Position numbers and translations under genes: made by a program. Positions 3,335 to 14,866 of a stretch of DNA of 20,000 nt are shown piece by piece; positions within the stretch are counted from its first letter, which is position 1; each line of letters begins with the position of its first letter. The stretch is taken from IMG/VR virus record IMGVR_UViG_3300028592_000009; one strand, given 5' to 3'. Under the pieces are notes generated by a model. That model was not told the DNA's origin. It made no database searches and worked only from the letters and a program-made list of their open reading frames with translations. Source of the stretch: an uncultured virus (IMG/VR IMGVR_UViG_3300028592_000009). Its lineage: Duplodnaviria > Heunggongvirae > Uroviricota > Caudoviricetes.

Positions 3335-3391
3335 GGTCTCCTCAGCATGGGTACCTTACCCATGGACGTGACTGGCTGTCACGTTTCGACC
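3335..3391 (-). ncRNA. type II hammerhead ribozyme HHR1
   Basis: Minus strand: A-GGTC GAAA CGTGAC-AGCCA-GTCACG TC^ CATGGG-TAAGGTA-CCCATG CTGAGGA GACC, then AGGGAG..ATG. Predicted cut 3' of 3365. Confidence 0.95.
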
Positions 3392-3400
3392 TGGACGGGA

Positions 3401-3625
3401 TCAGTCGGTGCCGAGCACGATGTGCTCGTTGTTCGGGACGTCGCGGAGGGCGGCCTCGCGGATCGCCTCGTCCGACTTGTGCTTGTGCAGCATGTGCGCC
3501 AGCTTCTCGAGCTGCTCGGCGGAGATGTTGATCGCGTCCTGTCCGTCGTCGAGGAGGACGCCCTCCCATCCCTCGGACACGGTCGCCCAGAGGTAGTCGT
3601 CGAGCTGGACTCGTTCGTTCGCCAT
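3401..3625 (-). CDS. hypothetical protein (74 aa)
   Basis: MANERVQLDDYLW...; SD AGGAG. Confidence 0.7.
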   Translation of the reverse strand: MANERVQLDDYLWATVSEGWEGVLLDDGQDAINISAEQLEKLAHMLHKHKSDEAIREAALRDVPNNEHIVLGTD

Positions 3626-3633
3626 GGTCGCTC

Positions 3634-3762
3634 CTAGCAGCCCTGGTTGAGGATGAAGATGATGCCGAGCAGGACGATGATCAGGAGCACGATGCATCCG
3701 AACATCAGCTCGATGGCCATCTTGAGCATGTCGCCGTAGGACATGTTGGTGAAGCGCTTCAC
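3634..3762 (-). CDS. single-TM micropeptide (42 aa)
   Basis: GTG start overlapping the upstream TGA; SD GGAGG; LMFGCIVLLIIVLLGIIFIL. Confidence 0.6.
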   Translation of the reverse strand: MKRFTNMSYGDMLKMAIELMFGCIVLLIIVLLGIIFILNQGC

Positions 3763-4049
3763 GAGATCGCCTCCCACAGCGGACGGGGCGCGTAGGGGCT
3801 GATCCTGCCATAGCCGTTCACCTGGTCCGTGGCCAGCCACACGGCCTTGCGCGCCTCGTCGGCGAGCTCTCCGTCGATGTAGTCGGCGAGCTCCTCACCC
3901 GAGATGACGCCGAGCACGACCCCGGTGAGCGGGTAGGTCGGCTGCATCCCGACGAGCACCTCGACCTCGGAGACGTCGACACCGGCGTCCTCCAGGTCCA
4001 GCCGGATCTCTCCGAGCTTCTCGATGAGCTCCGTGAGCTTCAGCTTCAT
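3759..4049 (-). CDS. hypothetical acidic protein (96 aa)
   Basis: SD GGAGG directly after HHR2; good codon usage. Confidence 0.8.
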   Translation of the reverse strand: MKLKLTELIEKLGEIRLDLEDAGVDVSEVEVLVGMQPTYPLTGVVLGVISGEELADYIDGELADEARKAVWLATDQVNGYGRISPYAPRPLWEAIS

Positions 4050-4060
4050 GTTCCCTCCAC

Positions 4061-4123
4061 GATCTCGTCAGCACCCGTGCCATACGGGCGGACGCCACGG
4101 CTGGATGTCGCAGCGTTTCGATC
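4061..4123 (-). ncRNA. type II hammerhead ribozyme HHR2
   Basis: A-GATC GAAA CGCTGCG-ACATCCAGC-CGTGGCG TC^ CGCCCG-TATGGCA-CGGGTG CTGACGA GATC, then GTGGAGG..ATG. Predicted cut 3' of 4091. Confidence 0.93.
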
Positions 4124-4135
4124 TGGCTGTGGTGG

Positions 4136-4261
4136 TTACCAGTGGAGCCCGAAGGCTCGCAGGACCAGCCCGATGCCGACCCCGAGCAGGACCCCGAGGA
4201 TGGCGCAGGTGGCGATGTTCCACGGCGTGTCCGTGAAGAACGAGTTGAGCTTGCGAAGCAT
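4136..4261 (-). CDS. single-TM micropeptide (41 aa)
   Basis: MLRKLNSFFTDTPWNIATCAILGVLLGVGIGLVLRAFGLHW; GGAGG upstream. Confidence 0.6.
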   Translation of the reverse strand: MLRKLNSFFTDTPWNIATCAILGVLLGVGIGLVLRAFGLHW

Positions 4262-4358
4262 GAGCCCTCCCGAGGCCCTAGGCGGCCGTCTACGGGCCGC
4301 GCGTTGCCGGGTGAGCCCCTTCGCCCACCCGGCTTGCGTTCGGCGCTTACGTTGGCGC

Positions 4359-4901
4359 CTACGGCGTCTCGATGAACCCGGCCTCGTCGGCGTCACCATT
4401 CTCGACCGCCGCGAGCTGCGCCTCGGAGACGGCCGGATAGAGGCCAGCCGGGTGCTCGGTGAAGTTGCTGGCGCTGGAGCAGCCGATGTACTGGAGCTCG
4501 CACTCGATCACGCGGAGCTCGCGGTTGCGGATCTCCGTGAGGACGTTGTACCGAGCCTTGAGCTGCGCCTGGAGCCAGCTCGGGTCGATCCAGGCCGAGG
4601 CCCGCATCTTCTCGTTCGCCTTGAGCTCCAGGTACGCGAGCCGAACGAACTCGTCGACGTTGCCGAACTGCTCCAGGGTCGGCTCCAGACCGATCTCCAT
4701 GTCGGTCCGGTTGCCGAAGGACTCCTTGAGGAGGTACTCGACCTCGTCGTTCTGCTCCTGCGCCCGGAGGCGGTCGATGACCTCGTTGGCCCGCTTCTCA
4801 GCGTTGAAGCCGAGGATGTCGACGAAGACCTCGATCGTCTCCGCCGTGTCGAACTCCAGGTTGGTCTTCTCGATGAGAAGGATCCGGATACCCATAACCA
4901 C
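4359..4901 (-). CDS. hypothetical acidic protein (about 180 aa)
   Basis: AAGGAG after HHR3, then GTG (4899-4901) or ATG (4893-4895). Confidence 0.78.
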   Translation of the reverse strand: MVMGIRILLIEKTNLEFDTAETIEVFVDILGFNAEKRANEVIDRLRAQEQNDEVEYLLKESFGNRTDMEIGLEPTLEQFGNVDEFVRLAYLELKANEKMRASAWIDPSWLQAQLKARYNVLTEIRNRELRVIECELQYIGCSSASNFTEHPAGLYPAVSEAQLAAVENGDADEAGFIETP

Positions 4902-4913
4902 GCTCACTCCTTG

Positions 4914-4966
4914 AGAGCTCCTCAGCACCGGCTCTTACCGGCGGACGCCCGAAGGCGTTTCGCTCT
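4914..4966 (-). ncRNA. type II hammerhead ribozyme HHR3
   Basis: A-GAGC GAAA CGCC-TTCG-GGCG TC^ CGCCGG-TAAGAG-CCGGTG CTGAGGA GCTC. Stem III capped by a cUUCGg tetraloop. Predicted cut 3' of 4944. Confidence 0.95.
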
Positions 4967-4975
4967 TGCCTGGCG

Positions 4976-5015
4976 CCCGGTGCAGGGGTTTGGGTGGTCG
5001 CCACCCTGCACCGGG
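4976..5015. terminator. 12-bp GC hairpin after the 161-aa gene (attenuator or processing hairpin)
   Basis: CCCGGTGCAGGG(N16)CCCTGCACCGGG; no U-tract. Confidence 0.45.
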
Positions 5016-5029
5016 GCCGTCATGGGGTG

Positions 5030-5515
5030 TTACTCAGCGGCCTTGGCGGCCGTGCGGCGGGTGCGCCGGACTCGCGGCTTGGCCACGGGCGCCTCCTCCT
5101 TGGCCTCCTCGACCGGAGCGGTCTCGGCCACGGCCTCCTCGACCTTCTCCGCGTCGTCCGACAGCGCCTGGTCGGCCTCGCTGTCGTACTCCTCGGGCTT
5201 GGTCTCCTCGGCGACCGGCGCGGCCTCCTCGCCCTTGAGCTTGGCGAGCTCGGCCTCCAGCTTGGCGAGCTTGCGGGCCTTGGCCTCCTCGGCCTTCTTG
5301 GCCGCCGCGACCTTGCGGTCGGCGAGGTTCGCCTGGTTCTCCGGGCTGGCCTGGAAGTCCAGGCGGAAGGACACCGCGAGCTGGACGGTCTTGAGGTCGG
5401 GCTTGACCCCCGTCTTCTCCTCGATCCAGGCGGCGAACGCCTTGTGGAGGTCGGTGGGCTCGGCCTTGGCGCGCTCGGCGAAGGTCTTCTTCTTGGAGGC
5501 GGTGTTCTCGGTCAT
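5030..5515 (-). CDS. Ala/Lys/Glu-rich protein, paralog of 10513-11073
   Basis: N-terminal about 80 aa are clearly homologous to the 186-aa ORF; basic C-tail KPRVRRTRRTAAK. Confidence 0.85.
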   Translation of the reverse strand: MTENTASKKKTFAERAKAEPTDLHKAFAAWIEEKTGVKPDLKTVQLAVSFRLDFQASPENQANLADRKVAAAKKAEEAKARKLAKLEAELAKLKGEEAAPVAEETKPEEYDSEADQALSDDAEKVEEAVAETAPVEEAKEEAPVAKPRVRRTRRTAAKAAE

Positions 5516-5527
5516 GGTAACTCCTAG

Positions 5528-5598
5528 GGACTCCTCAGCACCGGCACTCTACCGGCGGACCATCGGGGCGGCCTCTCGACCGCCCCTAGGTTTCGTCC
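5528..5598 (-). ncRNA. type II hammerhead ribozyme HHR4
   Basis: A-GGAC GAAA CC-TA-GGGGCGGTC-GAGA-GGCCGCCCC-GAT-GG TC^ CGCCGG-TAGAGTG-CCGGTG CTGAGGA GTCC, then CTAGGAG..ATG. Predicted cut 3' of 5558. Confidence 0.92.
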
Positions 5599-5612
5599 TG
5601 TGTACTGCTTCT

Positions 5613-5847
5613 CTCGCACCCGCCGGGACCTACCGGCTGCTTGTGCGAGGCGCGTCGACCAGTCGATTAGCCGAGCTACGGGTTTTGTGGAGGTCCCGTT
5701 CCTGTCAGAAGTCAGCGGCCCTTGCGGGGCGCGATCTCAGCCGTCTTCCTGGGCTGTCCTACTCGGGCTCGCGGTCTTCGGGCTGCGTCTCGACCGTCGG
5801 CTGGATGCGCCGTCCCGGGAGTTCCTCGCTTGCCCTGCTCGCTTACG
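5613..5847 (-). ncRNA. structured leader RNA, copy A (unassigned family)
   Basis: No credible ORF. Shares sequence blocks and covarying hairpins with 9334-9737. Lies between a promoter and HHR4. Confidence 0.75.
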
Positions 5848-5978
5848 AGTAGAACTATGCGCCATTCCTCCGGGGAAGGCAAACACCCATCTACCTGCGC
5901 ATTCATCGCGTTTGCCCTGGTAGGGGGCTTGCGAAGATTCTATAATTTCTTTCAAGAAATTACATATGCGCAGGTAGA
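5843..5978. repeat. duplicated promoter/operator module, copy A
   Basis: Aligns without gaps to 9733-9868 (offset 3890). Contains three CWGGTAG boxes and an AT-rich tract. Confidence 0.85.
5854..5882 (-). promoter_or_regulatory. promoter driving the HHR4-HHR1 operon
   Basis: TTGCCT-N17-CATAGT; hexamers identical to those at 9744-9772. Confidence 0.75.
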
Positions 5979-6039
5979 CATGAGTGTCGACCATCTACGG
6001 CGATTCACCGCGCCTCAGCGCGAATCGGGCGAAACCGCC

Positions 6040-6468
6040 CTACAGCGCCGTGAGCTTCCACAGCGAGCTGTCCTCCAGGCGCACAATCTGGGAGCCGTCC
6101 GAGGCCTTGCCGACGGGCTCGTACAGCTCCCAGGTGCCCGGCTTCTCCCAGGGGGCGCGCGGCTTGGCACGGGGCGGCACGGAGGCCGGGGTGCCGTCGC
6201 TGTGCGTGATGGGCTCATTCAGGTCCGCCAGGGGCACACCGGCCACGGCGGGCTGAGCCTTGGGCGCCGCACTGTTGACGCGCCAGACGTGTCCCTTGGA
6301 GATCACGTCGATGTCCATCTTGTTCTGAGCGATGATGCGGCGCATGACAGCGCGGACCTGCTCGTCGCGGAGGCCGGTCTCCTTGCAGGCCTCGTTGATG
6401 ATGATGGTCTGGCCGATGCGCGCGACCAGGTACTTGGTCATGGTCGACTGCACGTTCATGTTACCCAT
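6040..6468 (-). CDS. putative winged-HTH DNA-binding protein (142 aa)
   Basis: IIINEACKETGLRDEQVRAVMRRI...VISKGHVWRV fits an HTH plus wing; SD AGGAGG after HHR5. Confidence 0.7.
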   Translation of the reverse strand: MGNMNVQSTMTKYLVARIGQTIIINEACKETGLRDEQVRAVMRRIIAQNKMDIDVISKGHVWRVNSAAPKAQPAVAGVPLADLNEPITHSDGTPASVPPRAKPRAPWEKPGTWELYEPVGKASDGSQIVRLEDSSLWKLTAL

Positions 6469-6484
6469 GTTGCAGAGCCCTCCT

Positions 6485-6546
6485 AGACTCGTCAGCGGCC
6501 GTCTACGGCCGGACCGCACCCCGGTGACCCGGGGCCGGTTTCGTCC
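6485..6546 (-). ncRNA. type II hammerhead ribozyme HHR5
   Basis: A-GGAC GAAA CCG-GCCCCGG-GTCA-CCGGGGT-G-CGG TC^ CGGCCG-TAGA-CGGCCG CTGACGA GTCT, then AGGAGG. Predicted cut 3' of 6512. Confidence 0.93.
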
Positions 6547-6555
6547 TGTGGAGGA

Positions 6556-7188
6556 TCAGACGTAGGACCAGGAGCGCACGACCGACATGGTGCCATGGCT
6601 GGCGACCCGCTGCCTGGCCGCCTTGAGCAGCTCGTCCTGGTCGGGCTCTCCGAGCACCTTGACGCGCTGCTGGCTGATCTTGGCCGGATACTTGAGCCCG
6701 TGCTGCTTGTCCATCTGCACGACGGCGAGCCTGTCGTAGCGGTTGAACTCGCTGTCCTCGAACCGGAGAATCACGCCCTCCATGCCCACGTACCGGCCAC
6801 GGGTGGTGAGCGACTTCACGCGCTTGCCGATGCCGGGGGTGGACCAGTTGTCCGTGGCCGACTTCACGAGCATGCGGATCGTCCACTCGTCGGCCGCCCT
6901 GAGCACGTCGATCGTGGCGTCGGCGGAGGCGTTGTGGTGGTACGTCCAGCCACGGGTCGTCGCGTACTGGATCGTCTTGACGCGCTCCTCCTCGGCGTCC
7001 CACACGACCGCGTAGAAGTCGCTGTCGTCGTGCATGTTGCGCTCGTAGATGCCGATCACGGCTCCGAGATAGGTCGTCTCGTGGGCCTCAAGGTGCAGTT
7101 TGTTGAGCGCCTCGTCGGAGCTGTACTGGTTGGGGTCGTACCCCTGCTCCTTGCCGTGCCAGGGGTTGGTGCAAGTGATGATGGGCAT
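6556..7188 (-). CDS. hypothetical protein (210 aa), possible KOW/SH3-like C-terminal domain
   Basis: Start MPIITCTNPW after GAGGAGG; GIGKRVKSLTTRGRYVGMEGVI resembles a KOW motif. Confidence 0.8.
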   Translation of the reverse strand: MPIITCTNPWHGKEQGYDPNQYSSDEALNKLHLEAHETTYLGAVIGIYERNMHDDSDFYAVVWDAEEERVKTIQYATTRGWTYHHNASADATIDVLRAADEWTIRMLVKSATDNWSTPGIGKRVKSLTTRGRYVGMEGVILRFEDSEFNRYDRLAVVQMDKQHGLKYPAKISQQRVKVLGEPDQDELLKAARQRVASHGTMSVVRSWSYV

Positions 7189-7201
7189 GATTCCTCCTCG
7201 G

Positions 7202-7254
7202 GAGCTCTTCAGCAGGACCGTGCAGCCCTGGACGCTCACATGAGCGTTTCGCTC
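7202..7254 (-). ncRNA. type II hammerhead ribozyme HHR6
   Basis: A-GAGC GAAA CGCTC-ATGT-GAGCG TC^ CAGGGC-TGCACG-GTCCTG CTGAAGA GCTC. Predicted cut 3' of 7231. Confidence 0.94.
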
Positions 7255-7259
7255 TGGGT

Positions 7260-7433
7260 GGCGACCTCCGCACCCCTCCATATGAGTGCAGAGGCCGCCT
7301 GCGGGCCATTTCGAACAAGGCTCGTGCCCGGGCACAACCCGGTCGGACGATCGTGCTCCTAGGAGTGCACTAGCGAAAGCCGTGCTGCACGAGCCAGGTC
7401 TTACGGATCCCCGCGTTCCGGCCGTCGCCGGAA
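7260..7433 (-). ncRNA. candidate structured RNA upstream of HHR6
   Basis: Non-coding gap with a 16-bp hairpin (7260-7299), a 9-bp helix (7319-7327/7387-7395) and a 7-bp hairpin (7416-7433). Confidence 0.45.
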
Positions 7434-7436
7434 GTC

Positions 7437-7586
7437 TTATGCCAGCTCCAGGCCTCTGTCGAAGCCGCACTGGGCATGGGCGACGATGCTGATGGCGCCC
7501 GAACGATCGGCCGTCCTGAACTCAGCCATCTCGTCGTCCGGCCCCTCGTCGCAGAGCTCGCAGTCGTCGTTGAACTCGGGCAGCAT
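7437..7586 (-). CDS. small CxxC...HxxC protein (49 aa)
   Basis: MLPEFNDDCELCDEG...VAHAQCGFDRGLELA; TGATG coupling to the upstream gene; below the ORF-track cutoff. Confidence 0.65.
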   Translation of the reverse strand: MLPEFNDDCELCDEGPDDEMAEFRTADRSGAISIVAHAQCGFDRGLELA

Positions 7587-7843
7587 CAGAGGGCCTTCCG
7601 AACGTTGATGGAGAGGACGACCGGGTTGGTCCAGATGTAGTTGCCGGAGCCGTCGGTGTTGCTCTGGTGGACGGTCGTCCTCCGGTCGATGCGGTATGCC
7701 ATCACGAACCGCGCGGCCATCGTTATGTCCGGGAGCTCGATGTCGAGCGTGCCGGTTCGATCCATGCCGTGGACCGTGGCCTTGAAGGCGGCCACGTTGC
7801 TCGTCAGCAGACCCTGCAGAACGGTGTCGATCTCGATGGTCAT
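7586..7843 (-). CDS. hypothetical protein (85 aa)
   Basis: SD GGAGG directly after HHR7. Confidence 0.78.
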   Translation of the reverse strand: MTIEIDTVLQGLLTSNVAAFKATVHGMDRTGTLDIELPDITMAARFVMAYRIDRRTTVHQSNTDGSGNYIWTNPVVLSINVRKAL

Positions 7844-7852
7844 GATTCCTCC

Positions 7853-7909
7853 GGTCTCTTCAGCAGGCGCACCTTACGCCTGGACGTCGCTGGCTGCGAC
7901 GTTTCGACC
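7853..7909 (-). ncRNA. type II hammerhead ribozyme HHR7
   Basis: A-GGTC GAAA CGTCGC-AGCCA-GCGACG TC^ CAGGCG-TAAGGTG-CGCCTG CTGAAGA GACC, then GGAGG. Predicted cut 3' of 7883. Confidence 0.95.
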
Positions 7910-7973
7910 TGGTTGGAGAAGTGGTCTTGCCGGCATGCCCATAAGCAGGCTAGCCAGACGGATAGGGCGGCCA

Positions 7974-8069
7974 TCAGGCCGCGCCCCAGAAGATCGCCAG
8001 GCTGACGGCGACAACGCCGATCACGAACAGGATGCACCCGAGGGCCATCTGGTCTCCGCTAACACCCAT
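7974..8069 (-). CDS. single-TM micropeptide (31 aa)
   Basis: MGVSGDQMALGCILFVIGVVAVSLAIFWGAA; TGATG-coupled. Confidence 0.6.
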   Translation of the reverse strand: MGVSGDQMALGCILFVIGVVAVSLAIFWGAA

Positions 8070-8188
8070 CAGAAGAACTCCACCTTCGAAACGATGAACA
8101 TGAGCACGGACATGAGGACCATCCCGACCGCCATCAGCGCGAGCAGGAACAGGAAGCAGCCGCGCGCTTCCTCGTAGCCGTCGGCCAT
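8069..8188 (-). CDS. single-TM micropeptide (39 aa)
   Basis: MADGYEEARGCFLFLLALMAVGMVLMSVLMFIVSKVEFF; TGATG-coupled. Confidence 0.65.
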   Translation of the reverse strand: MADGYEEARGCFLFLLALMAVGMVLMSVLMFIVSKVEFF

Positions 8189-8307
8189 CAGAACACCAGC
8201 CCCATCAGGATGGTGAAGCCGACACCCAAGGCGAACCCCAGTCCGCCGAGACCGACAAGTATCTTGAACAGGTCGCTCCTGTCGCGATCGCTGGAACCCA
8301 TCAGCAT
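8188..8307 (-). CDS. single-TM micropeptide (39 aa, Gly-rich helix)
   Basis: MLMGSSDRDRSDLFKILVGLGGLGFALGVGFTILMGLVF; TGATG-coupled. Confidence 0.62.
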   Translation of the reverse strand: MLMGSSDRDRSDLFKILVGLGGLGFALGVGFTILMGLVF

Positions 8308-8435
8308 CAGTGCTTCCTGCCCTTCTTGTCCTTGCCGGTGTTCTTGATGAGGACGTAGACGATCCAGCAGATCACGGCGATGAAGCCGAAGAACAGCAGG
8401 GTGTCCACGATGAGGATGAACAGTTCAGCGGGCAT
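8307..8435 (-). CDS. single-TM micropeptide (42 aa, basic C-tail)
   Basis: MPAELFILIVDTLLFFGFIAVICWIVYVLIKNTGKDKKGRKH; SD AAGGAG after HHR8. Confidence 0.72.
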   Translation of the reverse strand: MPAELFILIVDTLLFFGFIAVICWIVYVLIKNTGKDKKGRKH

Positions 8436-8446
8436 GCACTCTCCTT

Positions 8447-8529
8447 GAGCTCGTCAGCACGGCCACCTAGCCGTGGACGAGCCCCGGGCGAAGGGGTGTT
8501 GGGGAGTCCGCCCGGGGCTCGTTTCGCTC
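8447..8529 (-). ncRNA. type II hammerhead ribozyme HHR8
   Basis: A-GAGC GAAA CGAGCCCCGGGCG-(18-nt C-rich loop)-CGCCCGGGGCTCG TC^ CACGGC-TAGGTG-GCCGTG CTGACGA GCTC. Predicted cut 3' of 8476. Confidence 0.94.
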
Positions 8530-8533
8530 TGTC

Positions 8534-8842
8534 CTACTTGTCCGTCGGGACGTTGACGACCGCGTCGTCCGAGCCCCAGCCCGCGTTCGGGTCCGAGCCC
8601 TGGTCCTGCGGGATGTTGACGACCTCGCTGTCGTTGCCGAGGTACTGGTTCTCGTCGCCCATGTTGGCGATCTCCTTCTTGATCTGGTTCCAGATCGTCT
8701 CGTCGTCGAGGTGCGGGAACGTCTTCTTGGCGATGACGAAGACCGACTGAATCTCGATGTCTCCCTCAGCCCAGCAGGGCATGCTGCCCGGGCCCGGCAC
8801 CTTCTGCTTGGTCAGCTCCTGGATGTCGAGCTCGACCTTCAT
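8534..8842 (-). CDS. hypothetical acidic protein (102 aa)
   Basis: SD AGGAGG after HHR9; internal repeat DSEVVNIP/DDAVVNVP. Confidence 0.78.
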   Translation of the reverse strand: MKVELDIQELTKQKVPGPGSMPCWAEGDIEIQSVFVIAKKTFPHLDDETIWNQIKKEIANMGDENQYLGNDSEVVNIPQDQGSDPNAGWGSDDAVVNVPTDK

Positions 8843-8852
8843 GCTTCCTCCT

Positions 8853-8911
8853 AGGACTCATCAGCACGGCTTCCTTAGCCGTGGACCCGGCTGGCTACCG
8901 GGTTTCGTCCT
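8853..8911 (-). ncRNA. type II hammerhead ribozyme HHR9
   Basis: (TG)A-GGAC GAAA CCCGG-TAGCCAG-CCGGG TC^ CACGGC-TAAGGAA-GCCGTG CTGATGA GTCC. Abuts the upstream stop codon. Predicted cut 3' of 8884. Confidence 0.96.
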
Positions 8912-9237
8912 CAGTTGAACTGCGCCTCGACCAGCGTCCTGTGTCGGCGGATGGCCTGGCGTACCGCGTCGTACTTCGCCCCGTGCCGGAACGCCACGGC
9001 CTGCATGGCGCCTCTGACGCATCCGAGCTTGACCCAGTCCTCGTACAGCCTGGCGTCCGACACCCTGAGCGGAATGTACTCGCGCTGGACGATGTCGTAC
9101 CGAGCCTTGAGCCGCCTGCGGATGCAGGTTTCGGTCACTCCGTACTGGAGCGCCGTCTGCGAGACGTTCCGACCGAGCAGCTCCCACATCGTGTGGATGC
9201 GCTCGTTGTCCTGGGGCAGCTGGCTGGTTGCCGGCAT
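8911..9237 (-). CDS. putative double-HTH DNA-binding protein (108 aa)
   Basis: NVSQTALQYGVTETCIRRRLK and AMQAVAFRHGAKYDAVRQAIRR; SD GGAGG after HHR10. Confidence 0.72.
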   Translation of the reverse strand: MPATSQLPQDNERIHTMWELLGRNVSQTALQYGVTETCIRRRLKARYDIVQREYIPLRVSDARLYEDWVKLGCVRGAMQAVAFRHGAKYDAVRQAIRRHRTLVEAQFN

Positions 9238-9248
9238 GCTCACCTCCG

Positions 9249-9322
9249 AGACTCTTCAGCAGCGCCGTTCAGCGCCGGACAGCCCGCCCCCGGGTCATGG
9301 CCAAGGGCGGACTGTTTCGTCT
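9249..9322 (-). ncRNA. type II hammerhead ribozyme HHR10
   Basis: A-AGAC GAAA CAGTCCGCCCTTG...CGGGGGCGGGCTG TC^ CGGCGC-TGAACG-GCGCTG CTGAAGA GTCT. Predicted cut 3' of 9278. Confidence 0.93.
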
Positions 9323-9333
9323 TGTTGTGTTGC

Positions 9334-9737
9334 CTGCACCCCTGTGGGACCTACCACAGCGCTTGTGCAGTTCGCAGCTAGCTTTGCACCTTGCCTACCA
9401 ACCTGATGTGTCCACGTAGAAGCGGGTTCCGTGTCTCCCTCGCTTGTACGTGGCCGTCCCAGGCCAGTCGCGTGCTGTCAGCCTCTCGGCTGTCGCCTGC
9501 CACTACCGGTTGTGTGGGGGTCCGGTTCCCGTCTCGAGTCAGCCGCCTGCTGGACACCTTCTCCAGAGGGGGCGATTAAGGCCGTCTCCCTTGGCCCGCC
9601 CGGGTTGTCGTCACCGGGCTCCGAGTTCGACCGCGAGGGCCAGCTTGGGGGATGGGTTCCCGGTTCACCCGTAGGTCGCTTCCGGTCCGCTCTCCCCGCC
9701 TCAGAGGGGGTCGGACCCTCTGCGACTCGGTGTTACG
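9334..9737 (-). ncRNA. structured leader RNA, copy B (unassigned family)
   Basis: About 400 nt without a credible ORF; homologous to 5613-5847 with compensatory changes and insertions. Confidence 0.75.
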
Positions 9738-9876
9738 AGGAGAACTATGCCCCAGTCGGGCTGAGAAGGCAAACAGCCTCCTACCTGGTCATTCATCGGA
9801 AAAGCCCTGGTAGGAGGCTTGCGAACAATCTTGAAGTTTTTTGAAGAAATCATGAAAGCCCTGGTAGGAGGCTTGC
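9733..9876. repeat. duplicated promoter/operator module, copy B, with an internal 22-bp direct repeat
   Basis: AAAGCCCTGGTAGGAGGCTTGC at 9801-9822 and 9855-9876; inverted partial copy AGCCTCCTACC at 9775-9785. Confidence 0.85.
9744..9772 (-). promoter_or_regulatory. promoter driving the HHR10-HHR5 operon
   Basis: TTGCCT-N17-CATAGT. Confidence 0.75.
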
Positions 9877-10459: not shown

Positions 10460-10488
10460 ACCATACCCCAGTCAGGGTGGAGGCGCTA
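10460..10488 (-). promoter_or_regulatory. array promoter
   Basis: TAGCGC-N17-TATGGT. Confidence 0.75.
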
Positions 10489-10512
10489 CCCTCCACCCCG
10501 GGCTTTCCTGGA

Positions 10513-11073
10513 CTAGTTGTCGAGCTTGGGGCAGCAGGGCTTGGCGTCGTAGGCCATGTAGTTGTCCTCCAGGCTCGACTCACCCGAGTCGATCATGTCG
10601 GCGTAGATGATGTGGGTGACCTCGGTGTGGCTGCTGACCGTGACCGTCTCCTGGCTGTCGCCCTTGCGGCGGCTGCGCTTAATGTCGGCGCAACCCGCCT
10701 TGTGGACCTCCGGCTCGCCGTTGCCCTTGTACAGGATGGTGAGCTTGACCTTCTCGGCGGGCTCGACCGGGGCGGCCTCCTCGACCTTGGGCGACTCCTC
10801 CTTGCCGGCACGCAGCTTGGCCAGCTCGGCCTCCAGGCGCGCCTTCTTGCGCTCGGCCGCACCCTTGCGCTTCGCCTCGGCCTTGGCCTTGCGCTCGGCC
10901 AGGGAGGCCTGGTTCTCGGGGGAGGCCTGGAAGTCCATGCGGAGGGTGGTGACCAGCTGGACGGTCTTCAGGTCGACCTCGACCCCGGTCTTCTCGGTGA
11001 TCCAGGCGGCGAACGCCTTGTGGAGGTCGGTGGGGGCGGCGGCGGCGCGCTCGGCGAAGGACTGCTTGGCCAT
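10513..11073 (-). CDS. hypothetical protein (186 aa), paralog of 5030-5515, with C-terminal H..C..C..C domain
   Basis: Shared N-terminal domain; VHKAGCADI...KPCCPKL. Confidence 0.85.
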   Translation of the reverse strand: MAKQSFAERAAAAPTDLHKAFAAWITEKTGVEVDLKTVQLVTTLRMDFQASPENQASLAERKAKAEAKRKGAAERKKARLEAELAKLRAGKEESPKVEEAAPVEPAEKVKLTILYKGNGEPEVHKAGCADIKRSRRKGDSQETVTVSSHTEVTHIIYADMIDSGESSLEDNYMAYDAKPCCPKLDN

Positions 11074-11123
11074 TGTGGCTCCTCGTGTTAGGCTCGGGCT
11101 TCCTGCCCTCGCTCATGAGTAGA

Positions 11124-11152
11124 ACTTTACCCCAGTGGACTGGAGGTGGCTA
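11124..11152 (-). promoter_or_regulatory. array promoter
   Basis: TAGCCA-N17-TAAAGT. Confidence 0.8.
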
Positions 11153-11244
11153 CCTCCATTTGCAACTTTCTTGAAGATTCTTTCGGGAGGCCGTAGGCGG
11201 CTGTCTGCCGGCATGCCGGCATGAGCGGGGCGCCGGGCATGGGC

Positions 11245-11274
11245 GAGGCCCCCTCCTGGTGCGGAGGAGGCCTC
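11245..11274 (-). terminator. hairpin terminator
   Basis: GAGGCCCCCTCC..GGAGGAGGCCTC after the stop at 11290. Confidence 0.55.
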
Positions 11275-11289
11275 TACGAGGCGGGGCGG

Positions 11290-11559
11290 TCAGAGCTTGG
11301 GGAAGTAGTGCGCCAGGTCGAGGTCCATCTGGTCGGGGTTGTCGCTGGGGTGCTCGACCACGTCGTACCCCTTGGCGCTGAGGTTGTTGTGTCGGACCCA
11401 GTAGACCCAGCAGTCCTCGTCGCCGGTCTCCATGATCTCCAGCCAGGGCCCCTTGTGGCGGTAGGTGGTGGAGACGTCGAATCCAGTCTCGGCCGACGCC
11501 TGAACCATCGCCACGAGCTCCTCGATGCGGATCATGCCGTCCTCCTCGTTGTTGTCCAT
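11290..11559 (-). CDS. hypothetical protein (89 aa), probably leaderless
   Basis: ATG lies 6 nt after the -10 hexamer; begins MDNN. An internal start at M9 after GAGGAGG is possible. Confidence 0.75.
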   Translation of the reverse strand: MDNNEEDGMIRIEELVAMVQASAETGFDVSTTYRHKGPWLEIMETGDEDCWVYWVRHNNLSAKGYDVVEHPSDNPDQMDLDLAHYFPKL

Positions 11560-11565
11560 GGGTAG

Positions 11566-11594
11566 AGTCTACGCCACTGCACATGTGCTGGCTA
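11566..11594 (-). promoter_or_regulatory. array promoter
   Basis: TAGCCA-N17-TAGACT. Confidence 0.78.
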
Positions 11595-11666
11595 CCTCCA
11601 TGTGCGATTTGCTTTCGCAAACAGCAAAGCTCCGGCTGGCTGCCGGGGCTCGGGGTGTGGCTCGGT

Positions 11667-12014
11667 CTAGCTCTCAATCGCGGGCCGCGCCCGGAGGCGC
11701 TCCTGCGCCGCGATGATCATCGCCCGCAGCGCGGGGACATCGGGCTCGTCCGCGCTCGTTACGTCGTCGTACAGCTCACGCGCCGTCGCCTCCAGGTCCT
11801 CGACCAGCTCCATGTTCTCGGGCGTCATCTCGTCGTACATCGCGCAGTTGCAGTACGACCGGCTCCCGCACCCGCACCCCGTCGCCTTGAGCACGTACAG
11901 CTCGCTCGTGTCGTCCTTGACCGCCAGCATCGCCACGCCCGCCAGGTCGTACCGCTCCTGCGTGATGTCGACGTCGCCCAGGACCGCGTAGCCGGGGATC
12001 TTGTACTCGCTCAT
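11667..12014 (-). CDS. hypothetical protein (115 aa) with a CGCGxxxYCNC motif
   Basis: ATG after AACAACAACAAGGAG. Confidence 0.78.
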   Translation of the reverse strand: MSEYKIPGYAVLGDVDITQERYDLAGVAMLAVKDDTSELYVLKATGCGCGSRSYCNCAMYDEMTPENMELVEDLEATARELYDDVTSADEPDVPALRAMIIAAQERLRARPAIES

Positions 12015-12041
12015 CGTCTGCTCCTTGTTGTTGTTGATGGA

Positions 12042-12070
12042 ACTATACTTCATGCCGGCTGGAGGCGCTA
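12042..12070 (-). promoter_or_regulatory. array promoter
   Basis: TAGCGC-N17-TATAGT. Confidence 0.8.
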
Positions 12071-12093
12071 CCCTCCAGCCGGAGAAGTTTCCG

Positions 12094-12339
12094 CTAGGAC
12101 ACCAGGGCCATGCGGACCGCCTGGATGATCTCCGAGGTGGTGAGGTCCGACTCCTCGGGCAGGGCGTCCATCAGGTCGAAGGACGCGGCCTTGAGGTGCA
12201 GCGGCATCGCCTTGCCCGCCGCGAAGTTCTCGGCGACAACGTCCAGCTCGCGGGCGGCGGTGAGGAGGCGCTGGGAGCGGAGGCGGTCGGCCTCGAAGAG
12301 GGCGGTGGCGATCACGGTGGTGAGGTTGATCATGTCCAT
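12094..12339 (-). CDS. hypothetical protein (81 aa)
   Basis: SD AGGAGG after AACAACAAC. Confidence 0.75.
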   Translation of the reverse strand: MDMINLTTVIATALFEADRLRSQRLLTAARELDVVAENFAAGKAMPLHLKAASFDLMDALPEESDLTTSEIIQAVRMALVS

Positions 12340-12379
12340 GGGTCGGTCCTCCTGGTTGTTGTTCTCGCTTACAGTAAGA

Positions 12380-12408
12380 ACTATACCCCAGCTGCAGTTG
12401 TGCGACTA
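12380..12408 (-). promoter_or_regulatory. array promoter
   Basis: TAGTCG-N17-TATAGT. Confidence 0.8.
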
Positions 12409-12546
12409 CCCCTTTGTGCAAACTTTCTTGAGATTCTTTTAGAGGCGCTACGTGGCCGTGTAAGGGCCTGCCGGCAAGCAAGGGTGCGCGGGTACGCAGA
12501 AGGCGCCCGCCTCCTGTGAGACGGGCGCCTACGGGCTCTTACGGGG

Positions 12547-12939
12547 TCAGAACGCCCGGCTGTGGACCAGTACCACCGAGAGCAGCTCGGCGGCCTCAAC
12601 GTGCGCCCGGGTCCACTCCTGGATCACCCGGATCATCGCCTGGTGCTCGGTCTTGTCTGCCGGCATGGTCAGGCGGCGGGTGGGCTTGCGGGTCTTGCCC
12701 TGGTACGTGTACGTGAGCTCGAAGCTCCACTCAATCGTCTTCGGCTCGGGCAGCCACTCCGGGTTGGCGTTGGGGGCAACGGTCTCCAGCAGCGCCCGGC
12801 AGGTCGAGCACACGCGGCGCTGCCAGCTGGTCGCCATCCCGTGGTAGGTCTTGCCCTCGCGGATGACCGGCTCGGTGACGATCTCGGTGTCGGCCAGCGC
12901 CTTGGGCTGCTTGCAGTCGTAGCAGGTGGTCTCGGTCAT
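12547..12939 (-). CDS. zinc-ribbon (CxxC...CxxC) protein (130 aa)
   Basis: CYDC...CSTC; AACAACAACGAGGAG leader. Confidence 0.78.
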   Translation of the reverse strand: MTETTCYDCKQPKALADTEIVTEPVIREGKTYHGMATSWQRRVCSTCRALLETVAPNANPEWLPEPKTIEWSFELTYTYQGKTRKPTRRLTMPADKTEHQAMIRVIQEWTRAHVEAAELLSVVLVHSRAF

Positions 12940-12968
12940 GGCTGCTCCTCGTTGTTGTTCCTGAGAGA

Positions 12969-12997
12969 ACTCTACCCCAGTGGACTGGAGTTGACTA
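12969..12997 (-). promoter_or_regulatory. array promoter
   Basis: TAGTCA-N17-TAGAGT. Confidence 0.8.
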
Positions 12998-13004
12998 CCC
13001 CTTG

Positions 13005-13031
13005 CGGGGCCCGGTTCTGGACCGGGCCCCG
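13005..13031 (-). terminator. hairpin terminator
   Basis: CGGGGCCCGGT-TCTGG-ACCGGGCCCCG. Confidence 0.6.
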
Positions 13032-13038
13032 GGGTCGG

Positions 13039-13164
13039 CTACTCGGACTCGGCCTCCGCCCGCATCGCCTCGGCGGCCTGCGCCTCGTGTCCGGCGTCGG
13101 TGCCGTCGCAGCCGGGGTGGCTGAAGCAGGCGGTCCGGCGGTCCTCGGTGGGCTGCTCGCTCAT
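13039..13164 (-). CDS. small protein (41 aa)
   Basis: MSEQPTEDRRTACFSHPGCDGTDAGHEAQAAEAMRAEAESE; has its own promoter, AACAAC leader and terminator. Confidence 0.62.
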   Translation of the reverse strand: MSEQPTEDRRTACFSHPGCDGTDAGHEAQAAEAMRAEAESE

Positions 13165-13200
13165 GGTGTTCCCTCTCGTTGTTCTCTTGCTTACGAGTTC

Positions 13201-13229
13201 AGTATACTCCACTGCACATTGGTTGGCTA
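13201..13229 (-). promoter_or_regulatory. array promoter
   Basis: TAGCCA-N17-TATACT. Confidence 0.8.
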
Positions 13230-13248
13230 CCCCTTTGTGCAGATTGAT

Positions 13249-13276
13249 CGGGGCGGGTCCGCCGGGACCCGCCCCG
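13249..13276 (-). terminator. hairpin terminator
   Basis: CGGGGCGGGTCC-GCCG-GGACCCGCCCCG. Confidence 0.62.
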
Positions 13277-13282
13277 GTTCTA

Positions 13283-13525
13283 CTAGTAGCTCAGGCCGAC
13301 CCAGTAGGTCGCGGACACCGCGCCCCAACCGACACCCGGGGCGCCCATCTCCTTGGCCTTGGCGGTGACCTTGGTCAGGACGTCCTTGGAGCCACGGATC
13401 TTGTAGGTCTCGATGACCGGGGTGGTGGACTCGAAGCCCTCCTTGATGGTCACCGTGCACCAGCCGTTGCGGCCGATGCGGACCTCGAAGCGCGTGTCCT
13501 TCGGGAGGGTCTTGTTCTCGTCCAT
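13283..13525 (-). CDS. hypothetical protein (80 aa)
   Basis: MDENKTLPK...; AACAACAAGAAGGAG leader. Confidence 0.75.
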   Translation of the reverse strand: MDENKTLPKDTRFEVRIGRNGWCTVTIKEGFESTTPVIETYKIRGSKDVLTKVTAKAKEMGAPGVGWGAVSATYWVGLSY

Positions 13526-13571
13526 GTCCTGCTCCTTCTTGTTGTTCGAGGCTCCTTGCCTCATGAGTAGA

Positions 13572-13600
13572 ACTTTACTCCAGTCCACTGCAGCTGGCTA
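13572..13600 (-). promoter_or_regulatory. array promoter
   Basis: TAGCCA-N17-TAAAGT. Confidence 0.8.
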
Positions 13601-13668
13601 CCTGCAATCGCAACTTTCTTCAAGATTCTTTCAGACTCATGCCGGCTTGGATTCCAGGCATCAAACCA

Positions 13669-13697
13669 AGTCTACTCCATGCCGGCTTGTATGGCTA
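13669..13697 (-). promoter_or_regulatory. array promoter (tandem, no ORF of its own)
   Basis: TAGCCA-N17-TAGACT. Confidence 0.7.
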
Positions 13698-13712
13698 CTC
13701 TCCAGGCGCAAC

Positions 13713-13743
13713 AAAAAGCGGCCCACCCCGAAGGGCAGGCCGC
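13713..13743 (-). terminator. intrinsic terminator
   Basis: GC hairpin with a cUUCGg loop plus T5 on the minus strand. Confidence 0.72.
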
Positions 13744-13751
13744 CGGGCCGG

Positions 13752-14096
13752 TTAGGCGCGATAGCCACATCCGGCGCAGTTGAAGCCGAACCCGACAACC
13801 GGGGCGCAGTCGGCACCGCAGCCGACGCCCGGGGACCAGGGGGACACCGTAGAGGCCGCGACCGGACCGGTGCACACCAGGCGCCACGTAAGGTCGTACC
13901 AGGAGCAGCCGTAGGAGAGGACGCGACCGGAGCGCACATCGCGCTGGACCGAGGACACGATACCCACCAGGCCGCGCATACCAGACAGGGCCGTAACGGA
14001 GCGGCGCAGAGCCGGGTCGGAGGACGAGCCCGGGACGAAGACCAGCGAGCCGACGGGAAGGGCGGGGACGTAGGCGGGAAGGACGCGACCGGACAT
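13752..14096 (-). CDS. Cys-rich hypothetical protein (114 aa)
   Basis: ACAACAACGAGGAG leader; C-terminal CGADC...CAGC. Confidence 0.6.
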   Translation of the reverse strand: MSGRVLPAYVPALPVGSLVFVPGSSSDPALRRSVTALSGMRGLVGIVSSVQRDVRSGRVLSYGCSWYDLTWRLVCTGPVAASTVSPWSPGVGCGADCAPVVGFGFNCAGCGYRA

Positions 14097-14125
14097 TTTT
14101 ACTCCTCGTTGTTGTCGATAGTAGA

Positions 14126-14154
14126 ACTCTACGCCAGTGCACTCCACCTGGCTA
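14126..14154 (-). promoter_or_regulatory. array promoter
   Basis: TAGCCA-N17-TAGAGT. Confidence 0.8.
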
Positions 14155-14169
14155 CCCTCCAGTCCAAAC

Positions 14170-14202
14170 AAAAGCGGCCCGCCCCGGGAAGGGACGGGCC
14201 GC
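14170..14202 (-). terminator. intrinsic terminator
   Basis: GC hairpin plus TTTTGTTT on the minus strand. Confidence 0.72.
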
Positions 14203-14214
14203 GAGGGGCGCCGG

Positions 14215-14469
14215 TTAGAGGCCGAGCTCCGACCGGTCGGCGGCCAGGGCCGCGTCCAGGTAGGCCGCCGTCGGCTCCGACCCGTCCATGGGCTCACAAG
14301 CGTCCAGGACGTCGTAGGAGTCGCCCTCGGGCTTGGCCCAGAAGGAGAAGCCGCACTCCGGGACGGAGGCGTCGAACTCGACCCAGTCCCCAGCGGTCCG
14401 GCCGGTGGCCGTAACGGGGAAGCGCGGGTCGGACTCGGACTCGGCGATGACGCGGGCGATGAAGTCCAT
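14215..14469 (-). CDS. acidic hypothetical protein (84 aa)
   Basis: AACAACAAGAGGGAG leader. Confidence 0.72.
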   Translation of the reverse strand: MDFIARVIAESESDPRFPVTATGRTAGDWVEFDASVPECGFSFWAKPEGDSYDVLDACEPMDGSEPTAAYLDAALAADRSELGL

Positions 14470-14517
14470 TGTGGTTCTCCCTCTTGTTGTTCGGGGCTCC
14501 TTGCCCCTTGTAGTTTA

Positions 14518-14546
14518 AGTATACTCCAGTTGGACACCTCTGATTA
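14518..14546 (-). promoter_or_regulatory. array promoter
   Basis: TAATCA-N17-TATACT. Confidence 0.75.
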
Positions 14547-14627
14547 CCTCCAACTGGGAATTTCACAAGATTGTTTTGGACATACCGGCAGGCCGCGCCC
14601 CGGAGAGAGGCGCGGCCCAACGGGCGA

Positions 14628-14819
14628 CTAGGCGCAACCGGCGCCGTGGGGGTGGGCCATACGACCGCAGTCCAGGCAGACGTGGGACAAGCAGTAGCGG
14701 TCGAAGGGCAGCGCCGAGCAGTCGGAGCACGCGGCCACACGGGCGGCCACGGCGGCGAAGAGCCGGACGTAGAGGGCGGTAACGGGCACGAGCACGAGGT
14801 GGTCCTTGTTGTTGTCCAT
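14628..14819 (-). CDS. Cys-rich small protein (63 aa), probably leaderless
   Basis: MDNNK...CSDC...C..HVCLDC; ATG 6 nt after the -10. Confidence 0.65.
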   Translation of the reverse strand: MDNNKDHLVLVPVTALYVRLFAAVAARVAACSDCSALPFDRYCLSHVCLDCGRMAHPHGAGCA

Positions 14820-14825
14820 AGGTAC

Positions 14826-14854
14826 AGTCTACCCCAACTCCAGCTGTTTGGCTA
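14826..14854 (-). promoter_or_regulatory. array promoter
   Basis: TAGCCA-N17-TAGACT. Confidence 0.78.
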
Positions 14855-14866
14855 CCTGCACATGCA

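Follow-up and report, generated by a model that had tools for sequence, protein, structure and literature searches.

Hammerhead ribozymes that occur in clusters are known from phage-derived DNA. Perreault et al. (2011, PMC3088659) reported prophages in which one gene, or a short run of genes, has several hammerheads at its borders, and proposed that long transcripts of a phage are in this way cut down to messenger RNAs (mRNAs) the length of an operon or of a gene. The same source contains the first description of the type II architecture. It reports cleavage in vitro for three tandem arrangements of hammerheads, of which one is called a triple, and cleavage of one in Escherichia coli, and a pseudoknot joining loop I to the 3' tail mattered for rapid cleavage at low Mg2+ in the cases examined there (PMC3088659). 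Three type II hammerheads near phage-derived genes of Desulfovibrio vulgaris are described as cleaving in vivo (PMC8782182). The role of phage and bacterial hammerheads is called largely elusive in a 2019 review, in which the processing idea is repeated (PMC6765202), and a 2026 paper likewise states for small ribozymes in DNA genomes that their precise biological roles are mostly elusive (PMC13725137). Here we report on ten type II hammerhead motifs on the minus strand of a 20,000-nucleotide stretch of DNA (in the following “the window”) from an uncultured Caudoviricetes phage, IMG/VR record IMGVR_UViG_3300028592_000009, and on their possible role in processing two phage operons.

To locate the elements, both strands of the 20-kb window were scanned with a type II pattern consisting of CGAAA, GUH and CUGANGA in this order and at least three stem II pairs. 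The pattern matches ten times on the minus strand and not once on the plus strand; 300 dinucleotide-preserving shuffles gave a mean of 0.03 and a maximum of one match per window. A covariance model built from the alignment of the ten elements, termed R1, scores them with 55.1 to 77.8 bits, and the next-best score anywhere in the window is 14.8 bits. The window holds exactly ten elements, a number far from chance, and they lie at the ten positions on the coding strand where a first-pass annotation, made from the sequence alone, had placed them.

The order of parts is identical in all ten elements: the 5' strand of stem II, GAAA, the stem III hairpin, GUC, the stem I hairpin, CUGANGA and the 3' strand of stem II. 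This is the type II circular permutation, with stem II open and stems I and III closed. All ten coordinates that had been predicted for cutting carry GUC, and N7 is the only position of the core that varies within the window, both as annotated. The stems were further said to differ in sequence while staying paired. In the ten-element alignment 96.8% of the base-pair cells form standard pairs, compared to 28.5–40.5% if the 3' partners are slid by one to three columns, and 12 of the 16 modelled pairs carry compensatory, double-sided changes. The corresponding values for 32 elements from four phages are 96.0% and 33–40%. The list of stem II pairs in the first-pass annotation could be reproduced with the exception of the sixth element, where the pairing is GGAC/GTCT and includes one G-U pair.

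The phage is an uncultured relative of the lytic cluster BN siphoviruses of Streptomyces. By megablast the region matches four Streptomyces phage records, and a 161-amino-acid protein of the family phrog_20596 (5515–5030) is matched in nine Streptomyces phage records as well as in Arthrobacter phage Wollypog (two records). The Streptomyces phages were placed in lytic cluster BN by the genome announcement of phiRKBJ001, which makes no mention of ribozymes. The GenBank tables of the six cultured phages named below list protein-coding genes only in the stretches viewed, and no paper on hammerheads or hammerhead arrays in Streptomyces phages or actinobacteriophages was found in the literature. The window sequence itself occurs in soil metagenome runs recorded as DNA, a type that was guessed by the software, and no RNA run is listed for it.

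R1 was run over the whole records of six of the nine cultured cluster BN phages, i.e. all except Gibson, Lizz and ShakeNBake. Eight hammerheads each were found in Yara and PHTowN, seven each in Dryad and Rooney, and six each in phiRKBJ001 and Wentworth. Ten were found in G001, a near-identical IMG/VR fragment that has 60% of the window's sampled 31-letter words in common with it, and none in Arthrobacter phage Wollypog. The matches of each positive record lie on one strand and in one stretch of approximately 6–7 kb. The survey of related phages that had been suggested as a check was thus positive for every cultured cluster BN phage searched, with six to eight motifs per phage, several of them before orthologous genes. 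Two slots, before the DUF2786 gene (HH10 in the window) and before the phrog_20596 gene (HH7), are filled in seven out of seven phages by elements with differing stems. Taken with the conservation of core and pairing, this is what one would expect if selection kept a functional ribozyme at set positions of the operon.

The window and the six cultured phages together provide a set of 52 elements from seven phages. Positions C3, G5, A6, G8, A9, G12, A13, A14 and the pair A15.1-U16.1 are invariant in all 52. At H17, 49 elements have C and 3 have A, both of which are allowed, and N7 varies freely. Positions 1.1 and 2.1 co-vary (CG in 34, GC in 13, UA in 5 elements), and the pairs 10.1-11.1, 15.1-16.1 and 1.1-2.1 are formed throughout. 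The sole departure from the canonical core is a change of U4 to C (U4C) in five elements, all of them in relatives; the ten window elements are canonical. The elements show the catalytic core and three helices without core-adjacent mispairs, backed by covariation. By core, topology and covariation the ten elements are, as far as sequence can tell, genuine type II hammerhead ribozymes, and the conservation in relatives adds to the case for this identity, which the first-pass annotation had assigned. They would be expected to cleave themselves 3' of H17, producing a 2',3'-cyclic phosphate together with a 5'-hydroxyl (5'-OH).

Outside the core, stem III is often capped by a recurring loop, CAGCCAG or CACCCAG (e.g. 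in HH2, HH4 and HH10, and in copies from Yara, Dryad and Rooney), and the loop I sequences form two classes, AAGGU/ACGGU/AUGGC and GGAU/GAAU/GAAC. A pairing partner was established neither for the stem III loop nor for the loop I classes. By eye, pairing of loop I with the 5' tail (NCC with GGY) as a pseudoknot was attractive; a helix of at least four base pairs (bp) is possible in 3 of the 52 elements, the mean of 2.58 equals the 2.58 of shuffled tails, and the idea was dropped.

The window covers the replication and early-gene arm of the phage on the minus strand, with many small genes of unassigned function and a gene for a D5-type primase/helicase at 17079–19871. This gene and the cluster BN relatives establish the phage context. 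The ten elements share one orientation and mark off units of one to five genes on one strand, an arrangement that matches the clustered phage hammerheads described before. The Shine-Dalgarno sequence (SD) starts 0–2 nucleotides (nt) after stem II in all ten, in line with the earlier statement that each element ends close to one, and in 52 out of 52 elements a start codon with a preceding SD-like word follows 1–11 nt past the end of the R1 match. Five elements had been said to start within about 12 nt of the upstream stop codon. This is confirmed: the stop codon is overlapped by HH2, and its distance is 4 nt for HH3, 9 nt for HH6 and for HH10, and 12 nt for HH9. The remaining five are preceded by a spacer of 63–183 nt or by a long leader.

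Read along the minus strand, on which all features of this paragraph lie, the array begins with HH1 (9249–9322; stem II AGAC/GTCT; C17 at 9278; R1 score 63.7 bits), 418 nt downstream of a promoter-like motif and before a 108-amino-acid gene (9237–8911) that appears helix-turn-helix-like by weak Pfam matches. HH2 (8853–8911; (A)GGAC/GTCC(T); C17 at 8884; 71.9 bits), the element overlapping the upstream TGA, precedes the gene 8842–8534. HH3 (8447–8529; GAGC/GCTC; C17 at 8476; 69.7 bits) has a long stem III and stands before small overlapping or abutting open reading frames (8435–7974) that read as hydrophobic. In HH4 (7853–7909; GGTC/GACC; C17 at 7883; 75.6 bits) the SD follows stem II immediately; the genes 7843–7586 and 7589–7438 come next. 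HH5 (7202–7254; GAGC/GCTC; C17 at 7231; 64.5 bits) precedes a 210-amino-acid gene (7188–6556), the Yara orthologue of which is also preceded by a hammerhead, and HH6 (6485–6546; GGAC/GTCT; C17 at 6512; 55.1 bits) precedes a 142-amino-acid gene (6468–6040). HH7 (5528–5598; GGAC/GTCC; C17 at 5558; 59.1 bits) lies 252 nt downstream of a second promoter-like motif and before the 161-amino-acid phrog_20596 gene. It is followed by HH8 (4914–4966; (A)GAGC/GCTC(T); C17 at 4944; 63.9 bits) before a 182-amino-acid gene (4907–4359), by HH9 (4061–4123; GATC/GATC; C17 at 4091; 66.8 bits) before the genes 4049–3759, 3762–3634 and 3625–3401, and by HH10 (3335–3391; GGTC/GACC; C17 at 3365; 77.8 bits) before the DUF2786 gene (3322–2357).

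Other hairpins occur on the same strand among these units. Long GC-rich hairpins without a U tract are located between the stop codon and HH5 (7255–7437) or HH8 (4967–5029), and the region of the former folds at −99 kcal/mol over 194 nt. Three further hairpins (4262–4358) lie between the 182-amino-acid gene and a 41-amino-acid open reading frame with a hydrophobic stretch. The last of them resembles stem I of HH6, and the site was considered as an eleventh hammerhead and rejected, as it has no core and no R1 match at an E-value of 10 or below. These hairpins could be a decayed hammerhead or another element of processing or stability.

The two promoter-like motifs lie on the minus strand at 9744–9787 (CAGGTAG..TTGCCT, 17 nt, CATAGT) and at 5854–5897, where a second copy of the TTGCCT/CATAGT motif is found. 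TTGCCT and CATAGT at a distance of 17 nt match exactly twice in the window, with zero matches expected. The motifs are the likely drivers of the first and the second ribozyme operon, respectively. Between each motif and the first hammerhead downstream is a non-coding leader: the leader at 9323–9743, before HH1, contains a conserved core common to 13 other leaders, and the leader at 5599–5853, before HH7, is conserved in cluster BN phages. The unit of promoter-like motif, leader and hammerhead is present twice per phage in seven out of seven phages, giving 14 leaders. They are 242–429 nt long, and their common core ends in CTCCACAAAACCGGTAG. The conserved leaders have no match in Rfam. RNAalifold on a MAFFT alignment gave a consensus of only −11.8 kcal/mol with few pairs, and we claim no structure for them. 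A consensus terminator scan gave no coding-strand site between 3300 and 9400. The first-pass annotation had supposed two long transcripts; the two motifs with their conserved leaders and the stretch free of terminator-like sites speak for them indirectly, by way of motifs.

The same annotation had suspected that the density and regular placement of the elements were of an undescribed kind. This cannot be upheld, as clustered phage hammerheads were already described, and the same processing role proposed, in 2011 (PMC3088659), and unrelated viral contigs carry arrays as well. The arrays of Perreault et al. resemble the present one in that several hammerheads of the same orientation flank genes of phage origin, and the processing hypothesis is the same. 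They differ in that the arrangements tested there are tandem, with one called a triple, whereas ten elements are found here within 6 kb of a lytic Streptomyces phage lineage. In addition, the SD lies directly against stem II here, and the pairing of loop I with the 3' tail that belongs to the published consensus is missing (PMC3088659).

A pattern scan of IMG/VR gave, among the matches listed, two contigs (G004 and G002) with several type II elements on one strand. One contig has at least six matches in 4.3 kb and, at its other end, three sub-threshold matches to the Rfam model Hammerhead_II (RF02276); in another the model finds seven elements in 10.5 kb. The elements of both contigs that were recovered by a stricter pattern scan sit just upstream of an SD and a start codon. 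In this short distance they are like the window array, while they belong to other phage lineages and differ in GC content. Judged by eye, loop I of the G004 elements contains words that read as complementary to words of the 3' tail, and the SD comes approximately 10 nt further on. A more distant likeness concerns phage T7, which the first-pass annotation had named as an analogue. The early mRNA of T7 is processed by RNase III, a host protein enzyme, leaving 5'-phosphate and 3'-OH ends, and RiboJ is a synthetic, engineered ribozyme insulator. Cutting of a long transcript at structured intergenic sites, mRNA ends with hairpins and a defined 5' context are points in common; neither is a family to which the elements described here could belong.

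The arrangement of these elements suggests that the two operons, each with its own putative promoter, are probably processed co-transcriptionally by their hammerheads into gene-sized mRNAs. The hammerhead motifs with their topology, covariation and placement, their conservation among relatives, and the promoter-like motifs are direct observations; from them we infer which units are transcribed, that cleavage takes place in vivo, and what follows for stability or translation. RNA polymerase would start at the two sigma-70-like promoters (at about 9744–9787 and 5854–5897) and produce two long minus-strand transcripts, in which each hammerhead would fold during transcription and cut after its own GUC. 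The first hammerhead of each operon would remove a leader of 250–420 nt, and each later one would cut between one unit and the next, the downstream unit being a single gene or a block of two to five. At the start of a released mRNA, the stem I hairpin would carry the 5'-OH on its first paired base; CUGANGA and the four stem II bases would come next and, 0–2 nt on, the SD. The mRNA would end with the stem III hairpin of the next element and C17 carrying a 2',3'-cyclic phosphate. When the structure of the processed RNA is predicted, a stem I hairpin fully paired over 6–7 bp stands at the very 5' end in eight out of ten cases. Such cutting would yield defined mRNAs that are capped by hairpins and present every ribosome-binding site in the same surroundings, and no host RNases would be needed.

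Several points weigh against this processing, and part of them concerns the ribozymes as such. None of the ten window elements reaches the gathering score of RF02276 (37 bits), so that a cmsearch with Rfam on the minus strand, which had been proposed as a check, gives nothing at this level. What it does give, with a permissive E-value, are sub-threshold alignments for five of the ten elements at 24.1–26.6 bits, with the other five unlisted; the best score in G001 is 28.4 bits. The window elements have the same core, the open stem II and the closed stems I and III of this model. They differ in their scores (24–27 bits or unlisted, below 37) and in the 3' tail, which the model expects to pair with loop I and which is the ribosome-binding site in these elements. 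One must keep in mind that the gathering score is the curated cut-off of one model and not a structural criterion. As the cut-off misses all ten, standard annotation will find too few of these arrays in high-GC phages. A pseudoknot of at least 4 bp between loop I and the 3' tail, a feature of the majority of type II hammerheads and not a requirement, is possible in 1 of the 52 elements, and the best helix has a mean of 2.52 compared to 2.35 for shuffled tails, which is not clearly above the control. With the pseudoknot missing, cleavage could be slow or conditional, and this might hold at some of the sites.

The U4C change (CCGA for CUGA) is a further point of this kind. It is found in the HH7 orthologues of Dryad (11743–11817), Rooney (7964–8038) and PHTowN, phiRKBJ001 and Wentworth (8916–8990 each), while the window and Yara keep U4. 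Mutagenesis work has shown that U4C impairs minimal hammerheads. The stems of these five elements remain paired, with a compensatory change in stem III of phiRKBJ001. In view of the U4C change, some slots may do without catalysis. Two other points regard the benefit of cleavage. We considered that cutting unmasks the SD and had to reject this idea, since the predicted unpaired probability of the SD (0.22–0.81) is the same before and after the cut in most cases. A 5'-OH is also not necessarily protective in Gram-positives, where cleavage by the glmS ribozyme is followed by degradation through cellular RNases, as summarized in the 2019 review (PMC6765202).

The same data bear on other explanations of the array. 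Cleavage could serve to strip off upstream RNA and ribosomes and thereby give each ribosome-binding site a standard 5' context, so that a gene is translated independently of its neighbour, much as engineered ribozyme insulators work. The distance of 0–2 nt between stem II and the SD in all ten elements fits to this, as do the start codons behind all 52 elements and the unrelated phage arrays, which sit 10–25 nt before an SD and a start codon; ribozymes beside start codons of eukaryotic RNA viruses are moreover reported to support translation initiation (PMC13725137). We nevertheless regard translational insulation as an unlikely explanation, because the predicted accessibility of the SD is hardly altered by cleavage and because, within blocks, overlapping stop and start codons let genes be translated with no ribozyme in front of them. 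It also overlaps with operon processing rather than excluding it. Slow or conditional cleavage could alternatively act as a timer which exposes 5'-OH ends to host RNases and shuts off the early genes. The lack of a pseudoknot or any other predicted tertiary contact and the conserved U4C in five orthologues of the first ribozyme of the second operon are in agreement with such a role. The fully paired 6–7 bp hairpin at the start of the cut product in eight of the ten folds is not, since a 5'-terminal paired hairpin hinders decay that depends on the 5' end, and the canonical cores in 47 of the 52 elements argue for ordinary cleavage. Even with the degradation that follows glmS cleavage (PMC6765202) and the suggestion in Perreault et al. 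that slower phage variants may be regulated (PMC3088659), a timer appears improbable to us.

Two more explanations would give the ribozymes a fate or an origin apart from mRNA processing. The 5'-OH and cyclic-phosphate ends could be joined by a host ligase of the RtcB type or by the ribozyme itself, with ligated or circular RNAs as a result. The chemistry of the ends and the presence of ribozymes on both sides of gene segments are compatible with ligation, but nothing in the sequence requires it, an RtcB gene was found in none of the five cluster BN phage records searched, and Perreault et al. sought spliced or circular products and detected none (PMC3088659). We consider ligation highly improbable. 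Equally little probability is given to the assumption that the elements are passengers, i.e. selfish or relict insertions without a role for the phage. Their number does vary between 6 and 10 among relatives, and HH4 and HH10 look like recent duplicates; however, the common orientation, the position before start codons, the occupancy of orthologous slots and the compensatory changes around an invariant core point to selection. The co-transcriptional processing of both operons thus stays the reading that we prefer.

A different arrangement is seen in the same genome at 10460–14855 on the minus strand. The region holds 11 copies of a promoter-like motif composed of GTAGCS, 13 nt and TGGRG, followed by a hexamer of the TAnAGT type, where none are expected by chance. 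All eleven are on the coding strand, most of them shortly upstream of a gene start, and the motif is also found in cluster BN phages. Its −35 element is less good than that of the TTGCCT/CATAGT motif. There are no hammerheads in this region, but two sites that resemble intrinsic terminators. Paralogues of the phrog_20596 family occur in both settings, with a 186-amino-acid copy (10516–11073, minus strand) behind the promoter-like motif 11124–11153 and the 161-amino-acid copy behind HH7. Such a pair in one genome is a natural comparison of expression from a promoter with expression behind a hammerhead.

Cluster BN phages may accordingly have two interchangeable modes of making single-gene messages, one with a promoter before almost every gene (the eleven motifs of 10460–14855) and one with a ribozyme per gene or block (ten elements and two promoters), and the first hammerhead of each operon may release the leader as a free functional RNA. 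We put this forward as speculation that is rather unlikely to hold in full. If true, the released leader could be, e.g., an antiterminator that modifies the polymerase for reading through the many hairpins, or a regulatory small RNA.

For the biology of these phages, the processing of transcripts by hammerheads seems a reasonable reading of the sequences which, already proposed in 2011, now has supporting context. The value of the present arrays lies in their occurrence in cultured lytic Streptomyces phages, in the contrast with a promoter-per-gene region of the same genome, and in the conserved leaders, which would be removed by the first ribozyme of each operon. As the arrays are present in six cultured, lytic, plaque-forming Streptomyces phages, they offer a workable laboratory system for the processing hypothesis.

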